Origin: an uncultured Acidobacteriota bacterium
GTDB lineage: Bacteria > Acidobacteriota > Vicinamibacteria > Fen-336
Reading direction: 5' to 3'
DNA: 64,000 nt
Assembly (NCBI GenBank): GCA_963720545.1
Contig: OY970399.1
Location: 3,347,022-3,411,021 of the forward strand
The position numbers were made by a program, and so were the translations under genes. This document shows, in pieces, positions 7,059-14,754 of the stretch. The notes under the pieces are model-generated. The model made no database searches, was not told where the DNA came from, and saw only the letters and a program-made list of their open reading frames with translations. Each line of letters begins with the position of its first letter. Position 1 is the first letter of the stretch.

Positions 7059-9473
7059 ATGGACACCATCTGGCGGGACATCGTGTATGCCGTGCGTGTG
7101 CTTGCCAAGGCGCCGTCCTACGCGGCCATCGCCATCCTCACGCTGGCGCTCGGCATCGGCGCCAACACCGCCGTGTTCAGCGTGGTGAACGCAGTCCTCC
7201 TTCGCCCGCTGTCTTATCCGCAGGCGGAAAGGCTCGTGCTCATCAGCGAATGGTCCGAGCAGGTTCCCGAGATGAGTTTCGCGATGTCGAACTTCAAGGA
7301 CCTGCGCGACCAGAGCACGTCGTTCGAGCACCTCGCCGCCGCCAACCAGGCGAATTTCGTGCTCGGCGGCCAGGCCGAACCGGAGCGGCTGCTCGCGCGG
7401 CAAGTCTCGAGCGACATGTTCGCGACGCTGGGGCGCACGCCGATCCTCGGCCGCGCGTTCACCGCCGCAGAGGACAAGCCCGGCGCCGCCGCCGTGACCC
7501 TCATCTCCGAGGGGCTGTGGGAACGCCGCTTCGGCCGCGACCCGCGCATCGTCGGCCAGAACCTGGTGCTGAGCGGCCAGCCGGTCACCGTCATCGGAGT
7601 CATGCCGAAGACCTTCCACGGCAGCTGGAAGCGCGCCGACCTGTTCATGCCGCTGCTGCGCCTCGAAGACACCATTGGCGGACCCGGCAACCGCGGCAAC
7701 CACCCCGGCATCTACGTCACCGGCCGCCTCAAGCCGGGCGTCACCATCGAACAGGCGCGCGCCGACGTGGTCGCAATAGCGAAGCGCCTGGCCGACCAGT
7801 ATCCCGACACCAACGCCAAGCAGAGCATGGTGGTCGACCGGTTCCTCGACGCCTACGTCGGCGAGCTGCGCCCTTCGCTCATGCTGTTGCTCGGCGCGGT
7901 GGCGTTCGTGCTGCTCATCGCCTGCGCCAACGTCGCGAACCTGCAGCTGTCGCGCGCGGCCGACCGGGCGAAGGAAGTCGCGGTGCGCATGGCGCTCGGC
8001 GCGAAGCGCGGCCGGCTGCTGCGCCAGCTGCTCACCGAGTCGGTGCTGTTGTCGCTCGCGGGCGCGCTGCTCGGCATCCTGCTGGCCTTCGGCGGCCTGA
8101 AGGCGCTGGTCGCGTCGCTGCCGCCGAACGTGCCGCGCGCCGACGAGATCGCGATCGACGGTCGGGTGCTGGTGTTCACGCTGATCGTCGCCCTGGTCAC
8201 CGGCGTCCTGTTCGGCGTGGCACCGGCGTGGCGCATCTCGAGCCTGCGCATCAACGATCCGCTGCGCGAGAACTCGCGCGGCACCGTCGGCCCGCAGCAG
8301 CACCGCCTGCGCAACACGCTGGTGGTCGCGGAGGTGTCGCTGGCGCTGACGCTGTTGGTGGGCGCCGGGCTGATGCTGCGCAGCTTCTACCGTGTGCTGA
8401 CCGCCGACTCCGGCTTCAATCCGCACGGCGTGATGTGCGCCAACGTGCCGCTGCCGCAGGCGCGCTACGCCGACGACAAGGCACGCGCGCAGGTGGCGCA
8501 GCGCGTCCTCGAGGGCGTGCGCGCCGTGCCCGGCCTCGAGCATGCGGCGGTGACGCTGCCGCTCCTCGGCGGCTGGCAAAGCGGGTTCACCCTGCAGGGC
8601 CGGCCGGAGCCGCCGCCGGGACAGAACCCATCGGCCGACGTCGCGCGCATCAGCCCCGACTATTTCGCCACCATGGGCATACGCCTGCTGCAGGGGCGCG
8701 GGTTCGACGAGCGCGACGTGCTCGACAAGCCAGCGGTCGCCATCGTCGACGAGACCTTCGTCCGCGAGCACTTCGCGACGGAAAACCCGCTGGGAAAGCA
8801 CTTCAGGTTCGGCGACGCGCAACACGAGGAACCGTGGCTCGAGATCGTCGGTGTCGTCAACCACGTGAAGAACTACGGTGTCGACCAGGAGTCGCGCGTG
8901 GAGGTGTACCTGCCGTATGCGCAAACCTCGGTCGGCTCGTTCACGCTGGTGGCGCGCACCAGCGGCGACCCGGCCGCGCTGACCACCGGCATGCGCGCGG
9001 CGCTGCGCGCCGCCGATCCGCAGCTGCCGATGTACGAGACGCGCACGCTCGACGCCTTGGTGGCCGAAGGCAACGCGCAGCGCAAGCTGTCGGTGCTGCT
9101 CATCGGCGTGTTCGGCGCGCTCGCCCTGGTGCTCGCCGCGGTCGGCATCTACGGCGTGATGTCGTATGCGGTCACCCAGCGCACCCAGGAGATCGGCGTG
9201 CGCATGGCCCTCGGCGCCGAGCAGGAGCAGATCATGAAGATGGTGCTGCGCCACGGCACTACGCTCGCCGCAATCGGCATTGGCCTGGGCCTCGTCACCT
9301 CGCTGGGGCTGGCGCAGCTGGTGAAAACCCTTCTCTTCAACACCAGCACCGCCGACCCGCCGACCTTCTCGGTGGTGCCACTGCTGCTGCTCAGCGTCGC
9401 CGCGGTCGCCTGCTACCTGCCGGCGCGGCGCGCCACGCGCGTCGATCCGATGGTGGCGTTGCGCAACGAGTGA
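7059..9473 (+). CDS. ADOP-type ABC transporter permease (MacB-like, duplicated FtsX permease domains)
   Basis: 804 aa; N-terminal MDTIWRDIVYAVRVLAKAPSYAAIAILTLALGIGANTAVFSV signature; two 4-TM FtsX-like blocks separated by periplasmic domains; no adjacent ATPase gene. Confidence 0.85.
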   Translation: MDTIWRDIVYAVRVLAKAPSYAAIAILTLALGIGANTAVFSVVNAVLLRPLSYPQAERLVLISEWSEQVPEMSFAMSNFKDLRDQSTSFEHLAAANQANFVLGGQAEPERLLARQVSSDMFATLGRTPILGRAFTAAEDKPGAAAVTLISEGLWERRFGRDPRIVGQNLVLSGQPVTVIGVMPKTFHGSWKRADLFMPLLRLEDTIGGPGNRGNHPGIYVTGRLKPGVTIEQARADVVAIAKRLADQYPDTNAKQSMVVDRFLDAYVGELRPSLMLLLGAVAFVLLIACANVANLQLSRAADRAKEVAVRMALGAKRGRLLRQLLTESVLLSLAGALLGILLAFGGLKALVASLPPNVPRADEIAIDGRVLVFTLIVALVTGVLFGVAPAWRISSLRINDPLRENSRGTVGPQQHRLRNTLVVAEVSLALTLLVGAGLMLRSFYRVLTADSGFNPHGVMCANVPLPQARYADDKARAQVAQRVLEGVRAVPGLEHAAVTLPLLGGWQSGFTLQGRPEPPPGQNPSADVARISPDYFATMGIRLLQGRGFDERDVLDKPAVAIVDETFVREHFATENPLGKHFRFGDAQHEEPWLEIVGVVNHVKNYGVDQESRVEVYLPYAQTSVGSFTLVARTSGDPAALTTGMRAALRAADPQLPMYETRTLDALVAEGNAQRKLSVLLIGVFGALALVLAAVGIYGVMSYAVTQRTQEIGVRMALGAEQEQIMKMVLRHGTTLAAIGIGLGLVTSLGLAQLVKTLLFNTSTADPPTFSVVPLLLLSVAAVACYLPARRATRVDPMVALRNE

Positions 9474-9494
9474 GCGTCCCGGCGCAGGCGCGCG

Positions 9495-11531
9495 TTACTC
9501 GCCGCGAGCGCCGAGCGCGCGCAACCGTTCCTTCGCCCGCGCATCGTCCGGGTTCGACCGCAGTTCCGCGCGATACGCATCGGCGGCGGCGACCCGCCGG
9601 CCGAGTCGCTCCAGCGCCTGGCCCAGCGTGTACTGGCCGGACGGCACGTCTGCGTCGAGGCGCAGCGCCGCGCGCACCCGCTGTTCGGCTTCGGCAAAGC
9701 GGTGCCCGCGCAACGACACGCTCGCGAGCTGCAGCTGCGCCGGCGCCATCGCCGGATCGAGCTCGAGGGCGCGGCGCAGCGCGCGCTCGGCGGTGTGCAC
9801 ATCGCCCAGCTCGAGGCTGAGCGTCCCGAGGACGTACCACGCAGCGGGCCGCCGCGGCTGCGCGGTCAAAGCCGCCTCGAAGGCGGCGAGCGCCTCGCGC
9901 GCGGCGCGCGGCCGGCCCGCCGCGCGGCACGCCTCGACCAGCGGCATCAGCGTCGCGTCGTCGTCGGGACGCAGCGCCAGCGCGTGCTGGTAGGCGTCGA
10001 TCGACTCGCCAAGCCGCCCCGCTTGCCGCAGCCAGTCGCCAAGCGCGATGTGCGCCTCCATTACCGCGGGGTCTGCGTCCACCACCTTGCGCGCCGCCGC
10101 GATGCCCGCCTCGAGCTGGCCCTCGACCGCCAGGCCCTTCGCCACCTCGAGCGCCGTGAACAGCGAGACCTTGTCCTTGGGATCCGGCAGCACCGCCGCG
10201 GGATCGGTGCGCAAAGCCGCGCTCGCATAGCCGAGAGCGGCGAGCCGCTCGCGCAATGCGGCATCGCCGCCGCCGCCCGGCACCGCGTCGGCGCGACCAT
10301 CACCAGCCCCCTTGCGCTGCAGCGCGCCGCGCAGCTCGTCCGCGCGCGCGCCCAGGCTCGCATACATGTTGGCGCTCTCCGATGGATCCTTCGCGAGGTC
10401 GTAGTACTCCGGCCGCGGCGCCTCGATGTACTTCGTGGCTGCGGCGCGCAGCGAGCGCAGCTGCTGCCAGCCGAAATGATTGCGCGGATACCAGGTCTCC
10501 GAGTAGGCGGCGTGGCCAAGCTCGACGCGTGGGTCGAGGAGCGCGCGCAGCAGCGAGCCGCCGTCGATATCCGGCTGCGGCGTCAGCGCCGCGAGGTCCA
10601 GCAGCGTCGGCAGGACGTCGACGCCCGACACCTGCGTGCGGCTGCGACCGCGCAGGCTCCAGGGCGTACGCACGATCAACGGCACGGCCATGGTCGAGTC
10701 GTAGATGAAAAAGCCGTGGCCCCACTCGGAGTGCTCGCCGAGCGACTCGCCGTGGTCGGCCGTCACCACAACCACCGTGCGCTGCATGAGCCCGCGCGCC
10801 TGCAGGTGCGCAACCAACCGCCCGATCTGCTCGTCGCTGTAGGCGATCTCGCCGAGGTACGGTTCGGCCCGGTACCGCGAGCCCCACGGCTCCGGCGCGG
10901 CGTAGGGCTGGTGCGGATCGAAGAGGTGCAGCCACGCGAAGAAGCGACCCGCGCCAGCGCCAGTGACGGTGTCGATCCATGCCATCGCGTCGTCCACCAC
11001 CGCTGCCGCGGGCCGTTCGTAGCGACCAGTCTCGAAACGGTCCGAATACCGGTCGAACCCCTGGCCCATGCCGAAGCGCGACTCGAGCACCCACGCGCCG
11101 AGGAAGCCGCCGGTGGCGAAGCCCGCCTCCTTGAAGCGCTCCGCAAGCGTCTCGCGGTCCTGGCCGAGTGCCGCGGTGCCGTTGTCGTGGATTCCGTGAT
11201 GCCCCGGCAGCAGCCCCGTGAGCAGCGAAGCGTGCGACGGCAGCGTCAGCGGCACGACCGCGGTCGATTGTTCGAACACGACACCGTCGCTGGCCAGAGC
11301 GTCGAGCGCCGGCGTGGGCACGCCCTTGAAACCATAGGGGCCGATGCGGTCGGCGCGCAGCGTGTCTATGGTAATGAGCACGACGTTGACGCTTGCAGGC
11401 GCCGGCGAAAGCCGCGCCAGCCTGCGGCGCGCTTGCTCCTGCGGATCGGCATGCGCCGACCGCCACAGCCAGGCGCCGGCCCAGGCCGCCAGCAGCAGCA
11501 GGCCGAGCTTCGCGGCGTTCGCCATCTTCAA
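9495..11531 (-). CDS. Sulfatase-like (alkaline phosphatase superfamily) hydrolase/transferase fused to C-terminal TPR repeats
   Basis: N-terminal signal/TM segment; sulfatase-fold motifs TIDTLRADR and VVTADHGESLGEH; the nucleophile position reads TLPSH (Thr, not Cys/Ser-x-P-x-R); the C-terminal ~250 aa are TPR-like. Confidence 0.75.
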   Translation of the reverse strand: MKMANAAKLGLLLLAAWAGAWLWRSAHADPQEQARRRLARLSPAPASVNVVLITIDTLRADRIGPYGFKGVPTPALDALASDGVVFEQSTAVVPLTLPSHASLLTGLLPGHHGIHDNGTAALGQDRETLAERFKEAGFATGGFLGAWVLESRFGMGQGFDRYSDRFETGRYERPAAAVVDDAMAWIDTVTGAGAGRFFAWLHLFDPHQPYAAPEPWGSRYRAEPYLGEIAYSDEQIGRLVAHLQARGLMQRTVVVVTADHGESLGEHSEWGHGFFIYDSTMAVPLIVRTPWSLRGRSRTQVSGVDVLPTLLDLAALTPQPDIDGGSLLRALLDPRVELGHAAYSETWYPRNHFGWQQLRSLRAAATKYIEAPRPEYYDLAKDPSESANMYASLGARADELRGALQRKGAGDGRADAVPGGGGDAALRERLAALGYASAALRTDPAAVLPDPKDKVSLFTALEVAKGLAVEGQLEAGIAAARKVVDADPAVMEAHIALGDWLRQAGRLGESIDAYQHALALRPDDDATLMPLVEACRAAGRPRAAREALAAFEAALTAQPRRPAAWYVLGTLSLELGDVHTAERALRRALELDPAMAPAQLQLASVSLRGHRFAEAEQRVRAALRLDADVPSGQYTLGQALERLGRRVAAADAYRAELRSNPDDARAKERLRALGARGE

Positions 11532-12820
11532 TCGGGCCGCACCAGCCGCACCACCTGCACCGAGGAAAGCGTTCCGGGTGCCGCTGTTTCGAGGACGGGC
11601 GTCGTGTAGGCGATGTAGACCGCGTCGCCGATGCGGGCAGCGCGCGGCACGCCGCTGGACCGTGCCGGCAGGGTTGCGGAGACCGAAAGCGCCGCGCCGC
11701 GCCGGCCATCGGGAAACACCACGCGTGCGCGGATCTCGGCGTGTTCGGCGGCGCGCTCGATCCAGGTGACGAGCGCCGAGCCGTCGTCGAGCAGGACCAC
11801 GTCCACCCTGCCGATGGCCCCGCCGTCATCGATCGGCACGGGCTTGCCGAAGGTCTCGCCGGCATCCTGCGAGAACGCGACGAAGGCGCGCGCCCTGTTG
11901 TCGGCCATCGTGAACCACGCTGCGGCCACGGTGTCGCCGCGCGCATCGAGTTGCGGGCCGTTCACCGGGCAGGCGTTGATTCGCCAGCCGTCCGCCGCCA
12001 GCGGCCGCGGCCGCGACCAGACGTTGTCGCGTTCGTAGACGAAACTGATGTCGCGCACGTCTTCCCCGGGCCCGCCGCCGGCGCCGTCGCCGTTGGTCCG
12101 ATCGCGGTACGCGGCCACCAGTCCCTTCGCGGTGCGTGCCAGCGCCGTCTGGCAGCAGTCGCACACCCGCGAGTCGAGCACGGTCTCGCCCGAGACACGG
12201 TTGCGCGCGTCGAGCGAGGCGAACATCAACATCATCGCGCCGCCGGACGCCGTCTTCCTTCCGTCCAGCCACGTGAGCGCCATGGTCCCGCCAGCGAGCG
12301 GTTGCAGCGAGACGAAGCCGTGTTCGGTGGGGGAGCGGTCGCTCGACACCAGCACAGGCTTGCTCCAGGTGCGGCCGTTGTCGCGCGAGCGAGCGGCGAG
12401 CACCTGATACGCATATTGCTCCTCCGACACCTTCTGCAACCATTGCGCAACCAGGGCGCCGTCCGCCGCTGCCACGATGGCAGGGAAGTCTGCCCAGTTC
12501 ACGAACAGCCGCTCCGACCGCACCACCGTGACGGTCTTCGACCACTTTTCCCCGGCCAGCATCGCCATCCTCAAAGCACCCGATTCAACCCATGACAGGA
12601 TCAACCGCCCATCGCCGGTCGCCGACAGGAACGGCTCGGCCGCCCCCGGTCCGGCAGGGGAAACCACCGGCACGGCTCGCGGCGCAGGTCCCGCGTCCGA
12701 AGGCAAAGGCGTAGGCGTAGCCGACGCGGCGGACGGAGCACCGCCGCGCGAGCAACCGGCAACGGCGCAGAGCAGGAACAAGGCGAACGCGGCGCGAACA
12801 GGCATCGGCCTTTCTACCAC
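11528..12820 (-). CDS. BNR/Asp-box repeat lipoprotein (sialidase-like beta-propeller)
   Basis: Lipobox LLCAVAGCS; Asp-box motifs SRDNGRTWS and SQDAGETFG. Its stop overlaps the start of the downstream sulfatase-TPR gene by 4 bp. Start may be the internal ATG at 12805. Confidence 0.6.
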   Translation of the reverse strand: MVERPMPVRAAFALFLLCAVAGCSRGGAPSAASATPTPLPSDAGPAPRAVPVVSPAGPGAAEPFLSATGDGRLILSWVESGALRMAMLAGEKWSKTVTVVRSERLFVNWADFPAIVAAADGALVAQWLQKVSEEQYAYQVLAARSRDNGRTWSKPVLVSSDRSPTEHGFVSLQPLAGGTMALTWLDGRKTASGGAMMLMFASLDARNRVSGETVLDSRVCDCCQTALARTAKGLVAAYRDRTNGDGAGGGPGEDVRDISFVYERDNVWSRPRPLAADGWRINACPVNGPQLDARGDTVAAAWFTMADNRARAFVAFSQDAGETFGKPVPIDDGGAIGRVDVVLLDDGSALVTWIERAAEHAEIRARVVFPDGRRGAALSVSATLPARSSGVPRAARIGDAVYIAYTTPVLETAAPGTLSSVQVVRLVRPD

Positions 12821-12891
12821 GCGCCCGCGCGCGCCTGTGACCCGCGCATTTCAGGCTGGAAAGCCGCCCGCGCTACACTGGCCGTTCTCCC

Positions 12892-14754
12892 ATGCCTGCC
12901 GCCAGGGCCGCAACCACCACGGCGCAGCCGTTCCTCGAGCGCATCCAGGAGGGCGTCGTCGTGTGCGACGGCGCCACCGGCACCATGCTGTACTCGCGCG
13001 GCGTGTTCGTGAACCGCTGCTTCGACGAGCTGAACCTCTCGAACCCCGACCTCATCGAGGCGCTGCACCGCGAGTACGTCGAGGCTGGCGCCGACATCCT
13101 CGAGACCAACACCTTCGGCGCGCACCGCTTCAAGCTCGGCCCGCACGGCTTCGACAAGCAGACCGAGAAGATCAACCGCGAAGGCGCGCGGCTGGCGCGC
13201 GCGGCGGCCGGCGGCAAGGCGCTGGTGGCCGGCTCGATGGGGCCGCTCGGCAAGCCGCTGGCGCCGCTCGGCGGCATCGCGGTGGCCGACGCCGTGGATG
13301 CGTACCGCGAGCAGGCGCGCGGCCTGGTGGCGGGCGGCGTTGACCTGTTCTTCATCGAGACGATGCCGTCTCTCGACCAGGCGAAGGCTGCGCTCGACGC
13401 GGTGCGCGCCGAATCGAACCTGCCGGTGTGCGTGTCGCTCACCTTCAACGAAGAGGGCACCACCCTCTACGGTGACCACCCCGAAGACGTGGTGACGGTG
13501 CTGGAGTCGTGGGGCGTCGCGGTGATCGGCGCCAACTGCAGCCAGGGACCGAACCCCATGCTCGAGACGCTCGAGCGCATGGCGACGGTCGCCACCACCG
13601 CGAAGCTCTCGGCGATGCCCAACGCCGGTGCGCCGGCGATGGTCGAGGGACGCTACGTCTATCTGTGCACGCCCGAATACATGGCCTCCTACGCGCGCCG
13701 CTTCATCGCCGCCGGCGCCTCGATCGTCGGCGGCTGCTGCGGCACGACACCGGCGCACATCCGCAACCTGGTGCGCTCGGTGAAGATGCTGCGCCCCGGC
13801 CGCGAGGTGCGAGCCACCGTCGTGACGCCGCCGCGCGTGCGCGAGACGCCGACACCGGTGGCGCGCGCCGACAAAAGCCCGCTGGGCCGCAAGCTGGCGC
13901 AGAAGTTCGTGGTGTCGGTGGAGCTCGACCCGCCGCGCGGCGCCGACCCCAGCGTCATCGTCGAGCGCGCGCAGTTCTGCAAGGAGAACGAGATCGACGC
14001 CATCAACGTCGCCGACGGTCCGCGCGCTTCGGCGCGCATGAGCGCGCAGTCGCTGTGCGTGCTGCTGCAGGAGAAGGTCGGCATCGACACGATCCTGCAT
14101 TACACCTGCCGCGACCGGAACCTGCTCGGCATCCAGTCGGACCTGCTCGGCGCCTACGCGCTCGGCCTGCGCAACGTCCTCGCGATCACCGGCGACCCGC
14201 CCAAGCTCGGCGACTATCCCGACGCGACTGCCGTCTACGACGTCGACTCGATCGGCCTCATCCGCATCCTCGACCACCTCAACCACGGCTGCGACCTGGC
14301 CGGCAACCTCATCGGCCCGGCGCTCGGCATCCACATCGGCTGCGGCGCCGACCCCAGCAAGCCCGACACCGCTCGCGAAGTGGCGCGGCTCGAGCAGAAG
14401 GTCCTGGCCGGCGCCGAGTACGTCATGACCCAGCCGATCTACGACCCGCGCACCGTGGAGTCGTTCCTGGCGAGGATCAAGCATCTCGACGTGCCGGTGC
14501 TCATCGGCATCCTGCCGCTCTATTCGCACCGCAACGCGGAGTTCCTGCACAACGAGGTGCCGGGCATGATCATTCCCGAAGACATCCGCGAGCGGATGCG
14601 CAAGGCCGGCTCCGGCGAGCTGGCGCAGGCCGAAGGCGTCGCCATCGCGCGCGAGGCGCTGGTGGCGGCAAAGCAACTCGGCGTCTCGGGCGCCTACATC
14701 ATGCCGCCCTTCAACAAGGTCGATCTCGCCGTACGCGTCGTCGAGGCACTGTGA
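12892..14754 (+). CDS. Bifunctional homocysteine S-methyltransferase / 5,10-methylenetetrahydrofolate reductase (YitJ-like fusion)
   Basis: N-terminal Hcy-binding domain (VCDGATGTML, GANCSQGP, GGCCGTTP) fused to a C-terminal MTHFR-like TIM-barrel domain. Confidence 0.8.
   Translation: MPAARAATTTAQPFLERIQEGVVVCDGATGTMLYSRGVFVNRCFDELNLSNPDLIEALHREYVEAGADILETNTFGAHRFKLGPHGFDKQTEKINREGARLARAAAGGKALVAGSMGPLGKPLAPLGGIAVADAVDAYREQARGLVAGGVDLFFIETMPSLDQAKAALDAVRAESNLPVCVSLTFNEEGTTLYGDHPEDVVTVLESWGVAVIGANCSQGPNPMLETLERMATVATTAKLSAMPNAGAPAMVEGRYVYLCTPEYMASYARRFIAAGASIVGGCCGTTPAHIRNLVRSVKMLRPGREVRATVVTPPRVRETPTPVARADKSPLGRKLAQKFVVSVELDPPRGADPSVIVERAQFCKENEIDAINVADGPRASARMSAQSLCVLLQEKVGIDTILHYTCRDRNLLGIQSDLLGAYALGLRNVLAITGDPPKLGDYPDATAVYDVDSIGLIRILDHLNHGCDLAGNLIGPALGIHIGCGADPSKPDTAREVARLEQKVLAGAEYVMTQPIYDPRTVESFLARIKHLDVPVLIGILPLYSHRNAEFLHNEVPGMIIPEDIRERMRKAGSGELAQAEGVAIAREALVAAKQLGVSGAYIMPPFNKVDLAVRVVEAL

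Follow-up and report, generated by a model that had tools for sequence, protein, structure and literature searches.

The DNA considered here is a stretch of 64,000 nucleotides (hereafter the window) from an uncultured Acidobacteriota bacterium of the Vicinamibacteria (lineage Fen-336; GenBank assembly GCA_963720545.1, contig OY970399.1, positions 3,347,022 to 3,411,021 of the forward strand). Two co-directional open reading frames (ORFs) lie on the minus strand at positions 9495-12820 of the window (11528-12820 and 9495-11531 in the ORF list), and both genes are real. The upstream one encodes a predicted propeller lipoprotein. The product of the downstream one, called the enzyme below, is a sulfatase-fold protein that bears threonine at the nucleophile position and ends in tetratricopeptide repeats (TPRs). 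It is almost certainly not a sulfatase and is probably an exported metallo-phosphoesterase or phosphotransferase, and most of the evidence presented here concerns this protein. The features of its gene are as follows, with residues numbered from the ATG start:

9495..11525, minus strand: gene for the threonine-type sulfatase-fold protein with TPRs, 676 aa, ATG start, stop codon included (ORF list, Pfam, AlphaFold)
11448..11525, minus strand: N-terminal export signal, residues 1-26, MANAAK-LGLLLLAAWAGAWLW-RSAHA/D, the slash marking the possible cleavage site (read from the sequence)
10311..11396, minus strand: catalytic domain of the alkaline phosphatase superfamily on the arylsulfatase/phosphonate monoester hydrolase (PMH) scaffold, residues ~44-405, including a C-terminal SGSH_C-like subdomain (Pfam, Foldseek)
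11346..11369, minus strand: metal-ligand motif I-D54-T-L-R-A-D-R, in which D54 corresponds to the first metal-binding Asp of sulfatases (alignment at the sulfatase D-D/Q position)
11232..11246, minus strand: nucleophile motif T94-L-P-S-H98, in place of C/S-x-P-x-R (alignments to 7oz8, 5g2v, 3ed4, 7lha and 9koq)
11088..11099, minus strand: G-A-W-V, in place of the sulfatase G-K-x-H signature (alignment to GKWHL in 5g2v and 7lha)
10911..10922, minus strand: F-D203-P-H205 motif, with D203 and H205 invariant in 67/67 sequences
10716..10757, minus strand: D257-H258-G-E-S-L-G-E-H-S-E-W-G-H270, the second metal-ligand pair and His270 (alignment to 7oz8)
9498..10187, minus strand: C-terminal TPR solenoid, residues 447-676, 13 helices, about six repeats (Pfam, PDB matches, model)

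The ATG start at 11525 agrees with the database product P0001, which has 676 residues and matches the query with 100% identity. Starting instead at the TTG at 11531 would give a 678-residue form.

The catalytic domain is built like a sulfatase. In the 678-residue form, residues 49-314 matched the Pfam family Sulfatase (PF00884) with 141.1 bits against a cut-off of 25 (E 6e-41), and PF16347 gave 39.5 bits. The AlphaFold model, computed from an alignment of 67 sequences with identities of 33-68%, reached a mean pLDDT of 92.9 and a pTM of 0.89. It is made up of a helix at residues 2-24, an alpha/beta catalytic domain up to about residue 405, a linker of lower confidence, and 13 helices at residues 449-673. 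When the model was compared with the PDB by means of Foldseek, the top 50 structures were all formylglycine sulfatases or PMHs, with the Agrobacterium PMH 4uph in first place (E 4e-20). The best matches had E values from 4e-20 to 1e-17, target TM scores of 0.55-0.72, and identities of 20-24%. The original prediction for this locus, made from the sequence alone, had named LtaS/EptA and the arylsulfatases as the structures for comparison; the model falls with the sulfatases and PMHs, and structures of LtaS, EptA, and nucleotide pyrophosphatase/phosphodiesterase (NPP) were absent from the top 50. The predicted fusion of this domain to TPRs was borne out, with a repeat part of about 230 residues instead of about 250. 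Over this part, many TPR models of Pfam scored above their cut-offs, the repeats stand in tandem, and both designed and natural TPR structures in the PDB were matched.

It is in the active site that the protein departs from the sulfatases. In pairwise HMMER alignments, T-L-P-S-H falls on the nucleophile motif, namely S-T-P-A-R in 7oz8 and S-G-P-S-R in 5g2v, and the threonine that had been predicted at this position is therefore where it was expected. The prediction presupposed that no canonical motif stands elsewhere in the protein, and no such C/S-x-P-x-R was found in it. A hidden canonical nucleophile was rejected, since the only cysteine (C533) belongs to the TPR part and the sole S-x-A-x-R, at residue 435, lies inside the low-confidence linker. 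The remaining positions were mapped in Pseudomonas AtsA numbering with the residue lists of EfAS (PMC12421950) and SulfAtlas (PMC5066984). In this map, Asp13 corresponds to D54 (assigned after D20 of EfAS; PMC12421950), Cys51, the formylglycine residue, to T94, Arg55 to H98, Lys113 and His115 of the GKWH signature to G-A-W-V, Asp317 and Asn-or-His318 to D257 and H258, and Lys375 to H270; H205 is proposed as the counterpart of His211 from motif and position only. The metal ligands and the two-subdomain alpha/beta fold of the sulfatases are thus retained, whereas the equivalents of the sulfate-binding Arg55, Lys113, His115, and Lys375 are all replaced. The GKWH region reads G-F-A-T-G-G-F-L-G-A-W-V, with A or S and V in the family columns that correspond to Lys113 and His115, and His270 is aligned to the conserved lysine of 7oz8 at the Lys375 position. 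Three marks of SulfAtlas S1 and PROSITE (PS00523, PS00149) sulfatases are missing: the C/S-x-P/A-x-R motif, the G-Y-x-[TS]-x3-G-K-x-[WMY]-H signature, and Lys375.

These replacements affect positions that hardly vary in sulfatases. Among 4058 sulfatases, the nucleophile was always cysteine or serine, Arg55 was present in 99%, and Lys375 was present in 96%; threonine is not convertible to formylglycine (PMC5066984). The GKWH signature was defined in the same work, whose authors state that half of the PF00884 seed sequences are threonine proteins and excluded these from SulfAtlas (PMC5066984). The D/H fourth metal ligand is typical of PMH, SpAS2, and EfAS, which hydrolyse phosphodiesters and phosphonates (PMC12421950). 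EfAS itself, a “manganese-dependent arylsulfatase” (9koq, NF052527), was considered as a threonine-type relative and rejected because it uses Cys61, converted to formylglycine (PMC12421950). The curated NCBIfam models for sulfatases and their relatives scored far below their cut-offs: 153 against 481 for arylsulfatase NF010322, 121 against 433 for choline-sulfatase TIGR03417, 102 against 900 bits for PehA NF045661, and 83 against 850 bits for the Mn-arylsulfatase NF052527. The models for threonine-type relatives also fell far short, with 21.6 bits against 561 for EptA, 20.3 against 970 for LtaS, and 32.4 against 825 for YejM.

The unusual active site is the property of a large family. A word-indexed search gave 6340 proteins at E<=1e-10 among 8000 candidates scored. 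The best 120 homologues, many of which come from Vicinamibacteria, are nearly all sulfatase-TPR fusions of 730-780 aa, and T-x-P-x-H....T-G is present in 117 of them. They are labelled “sulfatase-like hydrolase/transferase” by NCBI and “arylsulfatase A-like enzyme/TadD” or “choline-sulfatase” by JGI. When 1.84 billion cluster representatives were scanned exhaustively with HMMER, 74,233 matched at E<=1e-10, true sulfatases among them. Apart from one truncated near-identical match, the 150 top-scoring representatives, each standing for a cluster at 50% identity, are 38-57% identical to the enzyme, and all have E<2e-90; the clade comprises at least 150 such clusters at E<1e-90. The T-x-P-x-H motif was found in 123 of the 148 newly returned representatives, whose median length is 731 aa. 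Found in so many close and distant homologues, the motif cannot be put down to a chance substitution. Across the 67 aligned sequences, T55, R57, D59, T94, P96, H98, D203, H205, D257, H258, G259, E260, E267, and H270 are invariant, and D54 is found in 66/67 sequences. A scan with one genome per GTDB species gave >589 relatives. The best 79 of these belong to Acidobacteriota (Vicinamibacteria, Terriglobia, Thermoanaerobaculia, Aminicenantes, Holophagae), Planctomycetota, Nitrospinota, and Sumerlaeota, and all are in metagenome-assembled genomes. The fusion, the distribution of which had been singled out for inspection, is the normal architecture among the best homologues and extends across Acidobacteriota and Planctomycetota.

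Three groups of known proteins can be set beside this family. The first comprises the formylglycine type I sulfatases (SulfAtlas S1) and the PMHs (4uph ArPMH, 2vqr RlPMH, 4upl SpAS2, 9koq EfAS, 7oz8, 5g2v). The two-subdomain fold (PF00884 plus SGSH_C), the metal-ligand positions (Asp, Asp-His, with histidine as the fourth ligand as in PMH, SpAS2, and EfAS), and the nucleophile at the N-terminus of a helix, followed by ...L-L-T-G, are the same. However, the enzyme has Thr instead of Cys/Ser, His for Arg55, GAWV for GKWH, His for Lys375, and an appended six-repeat TPR solenoid, and the NCBIfam models of this group are far from recognising it. NPP and alkaline phosphatase (PF01663, 2gsn) form the second group. 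NPP uses a threonine nucleophile, in a motif of the T-x-P-x-H type. The enzyme shares with this group the threonine at the equivalent helix start and the I-D-x-L-R-x-D first metal motif: its N-terminal 120 residues matched the Xanthomonas NPP 2gsn (E 2.7e-6), and the Pfam family Phosphodiest (PF01663) scored 70.9 bits against a cut-off of 23, with the best stretch at residues 50-119 aligned to profile positions 1-67 of 342. Agreement with the NPP profile is confined to the N-terminal motifs and the DHG region, whereas the overall architecture and the C-terminal subdomain are sulfatase-like, and NPPs have no TPRs. The second-zinc ligands of NPP are D-x-x-x-H and a distal H, for which H98, D203, H205, and H270 would be candidates here. 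The third group consists of the threonine-type PF00884 proteins (LtaS, EptA/MCR-1, OpgB, BcsG-like, YejM/PbgA), which likewise have a threonine nucleophile and a domain facing the periplasm or the outside. The EptA, LtaS, and YejM models gave weak local matches at the D-H-G-E...H stretch of the enzyme. Proteins of the LtaS/EptA/OpgB type, however, have an N-terminal multi-pass membrane domain of about five helices, whereas here a single helix (2-24) precedes a catalytic domain that begins at about residue 44, and they lack the sulfatase C-terminal subdomain, T-x-P-x-H, and TPRs.

Threonine-bearing PF00884 proteins are thus already known, and the clade is abundant in databases under a cautious generic name; it is not a new kind of system. 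It is a distinct variant that combines the sulfatase/PMH fold, an NPP-like T-x-P-x-H motif, histidines in place of the sulfate-binding cations, a TPR fusion, and, usually, a TonB-dependent-receptor neighbour.

The enzyme is probably active outside the cytoplasm, because its N-terminus resembles a Sec signal or anchor and 13 of the 67 aligned homologues match a simple lipobox pattern. In the enzyme, MANAAK is followed by a hydrophobic run of 15 residues and by RSAHA/D (read by eye, without a dedicated signal-peptide predictor), and residues 1-26 may be a Sec signal peptide, cleaved after A-H-A, or else a signal anchor. A hydrophobic N-terminus is also found in the homologues. In Vicinamibacteria-like homologues, a conserved R-R-P-P-R-T-D-x-E-A-R-A-R-L-A-x-L-x-P-A-P directly follows the N-terminal hydrophobic helix (alignment A1), and the window protein holds only a diverged version of it (RSAHADPQEQARRRLARLSPAP). 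The segment could form a helix close to the anchor instead of belonging to a cleaved signal.

The fold, the motif replacement, the conservation, the fusion, the gene order, and the family neighbours are directly shown by the analysis; phosphoryl-transfer chemistry, an extracytoplasmic location, and a docking role for the TPRs are inferred. The reading that results, an exported metallo-phosphoesterase or phosphotransferase with a threonine nucleophile and a TPR docking domain, is given a probability of roughly 60%. Threonine at the N-terminus of the nucleophile helix, together with an Asp/Asp/His metal site, is found in the phosphoryl-transfer branches of the superfamily (alkaline phosphatase, NPP, LtaS, EptA). 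A divalent metal would be held by D54, D257, and H258 and would activate the hydroxyl of Thr94, which would attack a phosphoryl centre (a phosphate mono- or diester or a phosphonate). The resulting covalent phospho-threonine intermediate would be resolved by water or, less probably, by an acceptor hydroxyl. The metal-activated threonine and the phospho-enzyme are suggested by the conserved Thr beside an intact metal site, the relatives on the PMH scaffold, and the NPP match. His98, His205, and His270, which replace or retain the sulfate-binding Arg/His/Lys, might bind substrate oxygens or a second metal; their roles and the choice between a one- and a two-metal site are guesses. The six-repeat solenoid could tether the enzyme to a partner in the envelope.

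The likely TPR partner in most family members would be an outer-membrane protein encoded next door. Neighbouring genes were compared in 82 loci (the best 79 GTDB loci by similarity and three hand-picked ones), in which all ORFs in flanks of up to 6 kb were clustered. A receptor-like protein of about 950-1100 aa with CarboxypepD_reg, Plug, and OMP_b-brl_4 or TonB_dep_Rec domains recurs in 45 of the 82 loci and in 29 of the 44 with full flanks (for example L048:2863-8052, L029:3006-13911, and L064:2558-9110, within a range from L002 to L082). Its gene lies <=300 bp from a family gene in 31 loci and <=700 bp away in 39, of which 27 have both genes on one strand. Homologues of the enzyme at 59-60% identity also have the receptor-like gene. 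About half of the loci appear to hold two to five tandem family ORFs, an approximate figure, as ORFs were taken from stop to stop and small TPR proteins were counted. A small CarboxypepD_reg-TPR protein is encoded in several Terriglobia loci. This context suggests a role beside TonB-dependent transport. Phosphate-regulon genes were not recurrent among the neighbours of the enzyme loci. Less frequent neighbours are a GWxTD-domain and TPR protein (about 10 loci) and an FG-GAP/ASPIC-UnbV protein (about 7 loci), with examples at L073:2356-4671 and L008:7505-10036.

In the genome studied here, the sole candidate for a TPR partner would be the propeller lipoprotein, whose gene abuts that of the enzyme. 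The features of this gene and of the junction are as follows:

11528..12820, minus strand: propeller lipoprotein gene, 430 aa, Asp-box, predicted seven-bladed, GTG start
12752..12763, minus strand: lipobox V-A-G-C23 (read from the sequence)
12365..12388, minus strand: Asp-box 1, SRDNGRTW, residues 145-152 (Pfam BNR at 144-154; S145, G149, and W152 invariant)
12152..12163, minus strand: invariant C220-D-C222-C223 (alignments A2 and A3)
11954..11971, minus strand: invariant C284-P-V-N-G-P (alignments A2 and A3)
11849..11872, minus strand: Asp-box 2, SQDAGETF, residues 317-324 (S317 and F324 invariant; D319 and G321 >=90% conserved)
11523..11531, minus strand: gene junction 5'-TTGAAGATG-3' (read from the sequence)

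The upstream gene had been described as encoding a BNR/Asp-box lipoprotein, a description that agrees with its lipobox, its two Asp-boxes, and a marginal match to the Pfam family BNR_2 (35.2 bits against a cut-off of 31.4). The signal ...FLLCAVAG-C23 fits the pattern [LVI][ASTVI][GAS]C as read without a dedicated predictor, and [AS]-G-C stands at the same position in many homologues. The gene has an alternative ATG at 12805. The database model P0391 (344 aa) starts 86 residues downstream of the ORF start and lacks the signal peptide, the lipobox, and the conserved first blade (window 12563-12820, minus strand); its start was probably mis-called. The family numbers 6221 matches, of which the best 120 are about 45-60% identical, and is labelled “sialidase family protein” by NCBI. 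Sequence matches to sialidase structures were not significant (best E 0.02). In the AlphaFold model (pLDDT 88.4), the protein forms approximately seven blades, and in Foldseek, PL42 and GH145 (TM ~0.6) rank above the sialidases (~0.45). It shares two Asp-boxes with the GH33 sialidases, which have six blades, and neither a six-bladed propeller nor significant similarity to solved sialidases was found. On the model, the protein is seven-bladed and not a demonstrable sialidase; it can be likened to seven-bladed propellers with or without Asp-boxes, such as CylK 7ron, the lectins BP39L/PLL, GH145 5mum, and PL42 7esk. Its family has invariant motifs of its own, which comprise four Cys (C220, C222, C223, C284), NWADFP, TEHGF, WLDGR, many Arg, and also Asp, Glu, and Tyr. 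No characterised enzyme was found to match NWADFP, TEHGF, C-x-C-C, or CPVNGP. The invariant Cys, NWADFP, TEHGF, and several Arg suggest that the protein has an anion-binding pocket as well as a site for a metal or a disulfide.

The two genes abut tightly under either start of the enzyme. The junction reads ...CCC GAT TGA AG ATG GCG..., so the propeller stop TGA (11530-11528) is followed by 2 nt and by the ATG of the enzyme (11525-11523). The 4-bp ATGA overlap of the original prediction is absent; there is a 4-nt overlap (TTGA) only if the enzyme starts at the TTG at 11531-11529. The tight abutment is compatible with coupled translation. An equivalent layout, TGA GC GTG with 2 nt between the genes, occurs in L001, the one close orthologue that was identified (70% identity). 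Beyond this pair of loci, the arrangement disappears. A propeller homologue is absent from the 79 genome loci of enzyme homologues (<=51% identity, flanks of up to 6 kb) and from the loci of two homologues at 59-60% identity. Conversely, the propeller homologues of 80 metagenome loci, of which 41 extend >=1.5 kb downstream, have no sulfatase-like neighbour, and three further propeller homologues on long contigs have none either; no recurrent neighbour of any kind was found in the 80 loci. Because it is missing in the loci of both families beyond L001, the juxtaposition is local to this lineage, and a conserved BNR and sulfatase-TPR operon, tested from both gene families, was rejected beyond that single orthologue. 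A functional link at this locus is possible, as the junction is still tight at 70% identity, but comparative genomics lends it no support. The observations of the original prediction therefore held for the fold, the motif, the TPRs, and the lipoprotein neighbour and failed for the ATGA overlap.

The alternatives to a threonine-dependent phosphoryl-transfer enzyme differ in how much of the active site they take at face value. That the protein is a genuine sulfatase using threonine or metal-bound water in place of formylglycine is extremely improbable, although the best matches in sequence and structure, like the fold, are sulfatases and JGI labels the homologues choline-sulfatase or arylsulfatase A-like. 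Against this stand the loss of the Arg55, Lys113, His115, and Lys375 equivalents, the failure of all curated sulfatase models to reach their cut-offs, and the exclusion of threonine sequences by the SulfAtlas authors (PMC5066984). The family is almost certainly made of non-sulfatases. The view, already part of the original prediction, that the protein is a phospho-transferase or hydrolase instead of a sulfatase is thus supported by the threonine, the lost sulfate-binding residues, the kept metal ligands, and the failed models. We know of no threonine-type sulfatase. A non-enzymatic module would explain the same losses differently: of the ten or so canonical residues of a sulfatase active site, five are changed, the fused TPRs point to contacts between proteins, and there is a weak local match of 32 bits to YejM, so the protein could be a scaffold whose catalytic domain has become a binding or regulatory module, like the periplasmic domain of YejM/PbgA. 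This is very unlikely, as the nucleophile, the metal ligands (D54 in 66/67), and other polar residues are held invariant at identities of 33-68%, which is the pattern of a constrained catalytic site, and the substituted residues, far from being degenerate, are conserved as well. A working active site with a different chemistry is argued from this coordinated, family-wide replacement. Several points nevertheless weigh against the phosphoryl-transfer reading. Enzymes of the alkaline phosphatase superfamily are promiscuous, and a threonine nucleophile alone is compatible with low sulfatase activity. The alkaline-phosphatase-like domain of YejM/PbgA illustrates that conserved sites of the fold can have non-catalytic roles. 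No paper was found on a threonine-type sulfatase-TPR clade or on its link to TonB-dependent receptors. The receptor counts (45/82) are raw, without a genomic background, and such receptors are very numerous in Acidobacteriota. Finally, the 64-kb window holds no TonB-receptor homologue, so the family context may not apply to this gene.

The last two points also bear on a reading that is built on the neighbours. In this reading, the protein is an accessory of TonB-dependent uptake: a phosphoesterase in the periplasm or tethered to the outer membrane would trim organic phosphate, the TPRs would be the adaptor, and the window copy would be a dispersed paralogue with its transporter encoded elsewhere. 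The receptor-like gene adjoins family genes in more than half of the loci, mostly directly and co-directionally, and does so at the 59-60% homologues too; tandem family ORFs and small CarboxypepD_reg-TPR proteins stand in the same clusters. On the other hand, the phosphate-regulon genes are missing among the recurrent neighbours, and the likeness to SusD/SusC, where helical proteins pair with a transporter, is speculation. Together with the absent receptor homologue and the missing background, this makes the uptake role unlikely. Still less likely is a dedicated envelope pair that modifies a glycan or lipid; for example, the propeller would bind a surface polysaccharide and the enzyme would transfer phosphoethanolamine or phosphoglycerol onto it. 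The two genes stand as a unit flanked by a divergent and a convergent gene, with only 2 nt between stop and start, a layout shared with the 70% orthologue, and both products carry export signals. Carbohydrate-active enzymes and lectins (GH145, PL42, BP39L, PLL) are among the structures that resemble the propeller, and the threonine enzymes of PF00884 include the transferases LtaS, EptA, and OpgB, whose NCBIfam models gave weak local matches in the DHGE region. However, the pairing is absent from the 79 and the two closer enzyme loci, from the 80 metagenome loci (41 informative downstream), and from the three further contexts of the propeller, a family that has no recurrent neighbour. The enzyme has one N-terminal helix, whereas LtaS and EptA use a five-helix membrane domain to reach the lipid donor; the EptA, LtaS, and YejM models reached 20-32 bits against cut-offs of 561-970, and LtaS and EptA were outside the top 50 structures. 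The glycan- or lipid-modifying envelope pair of the original prediction, with its ATGA overlap, was therefore not upheld, and only the non-sulfatase part of that interpretation stood.

If the threonine-dependent phosphoryl-transfer reading is extended to the whole clade, a wider picture can be drawn, which is unlikely to hold as a whole. The T-x-P-x-H proteins would be a large branch of the alkaline phosphatase superfamily in which formylglycine was switched to threonine and the anion pocket was rebuilt with histidines. The branch would bridge the sulfatases and NPP/alkaline phosphatase and would serve TonB-linked harvesting of organic phosphate (or other esters), with the TPRs as the adaptor. 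If true, this would be a new kind of outer-membrane-linked ester-harvesting module in soil bacteria. The superfamily is a textbook case of catalytic promiscuity and of the co-evolution of nucleophile and metal site, for which the clade would be a ready-made natural experiment. The repeated adjacency to TonB-dependent receptors points to nutrient acquisition in dominant, poorly understood soil phyla. Annotation is affected as well. Pipelines label thousands of these proteins choline-sulfatase or arylsulfatase A-like, which is wrong according to the evidence presented here, and such mislabelling inflates the apparent sulfatase and sulfur-cycling potential of Acidobacteriota-rich soil metagenomes. 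In practice, the association with the propeller lipoprotein seen at this locus should not be taken as a general rule.

The surroundings of the two genes are as follows. The G+C content of the region is about 71%, similar to that of the remainder of the window, and the window contains no paralogue of the enzyme. A consensus scan of 9300-13100 for promoters and terminators gave no site and is uninformative at 71% G+C. Divergent from the propeller gene, across a spacer of 71 bp, lies a gene for a fused homocysteine S-methyltransferase and methylenetetrahydrofolate reductase (MTHFR) of 620 aa (12892-14754, plus strand). The same homocysteine-methyltransferase/MTHFR fusion is encoded upstream in L001, with an extra methyltransferase gene intervening. 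On the other side, a gene for an 804-aa duplicated MacB_PCD/FtsX permease (7059-9473, plus strand) is convergent with the enzyme gene and ends 21 bp from its stop codon. Permeases of this kind are common in Acidobacteriota, and in L001, a convergent ORF also follows the enzyme gene.

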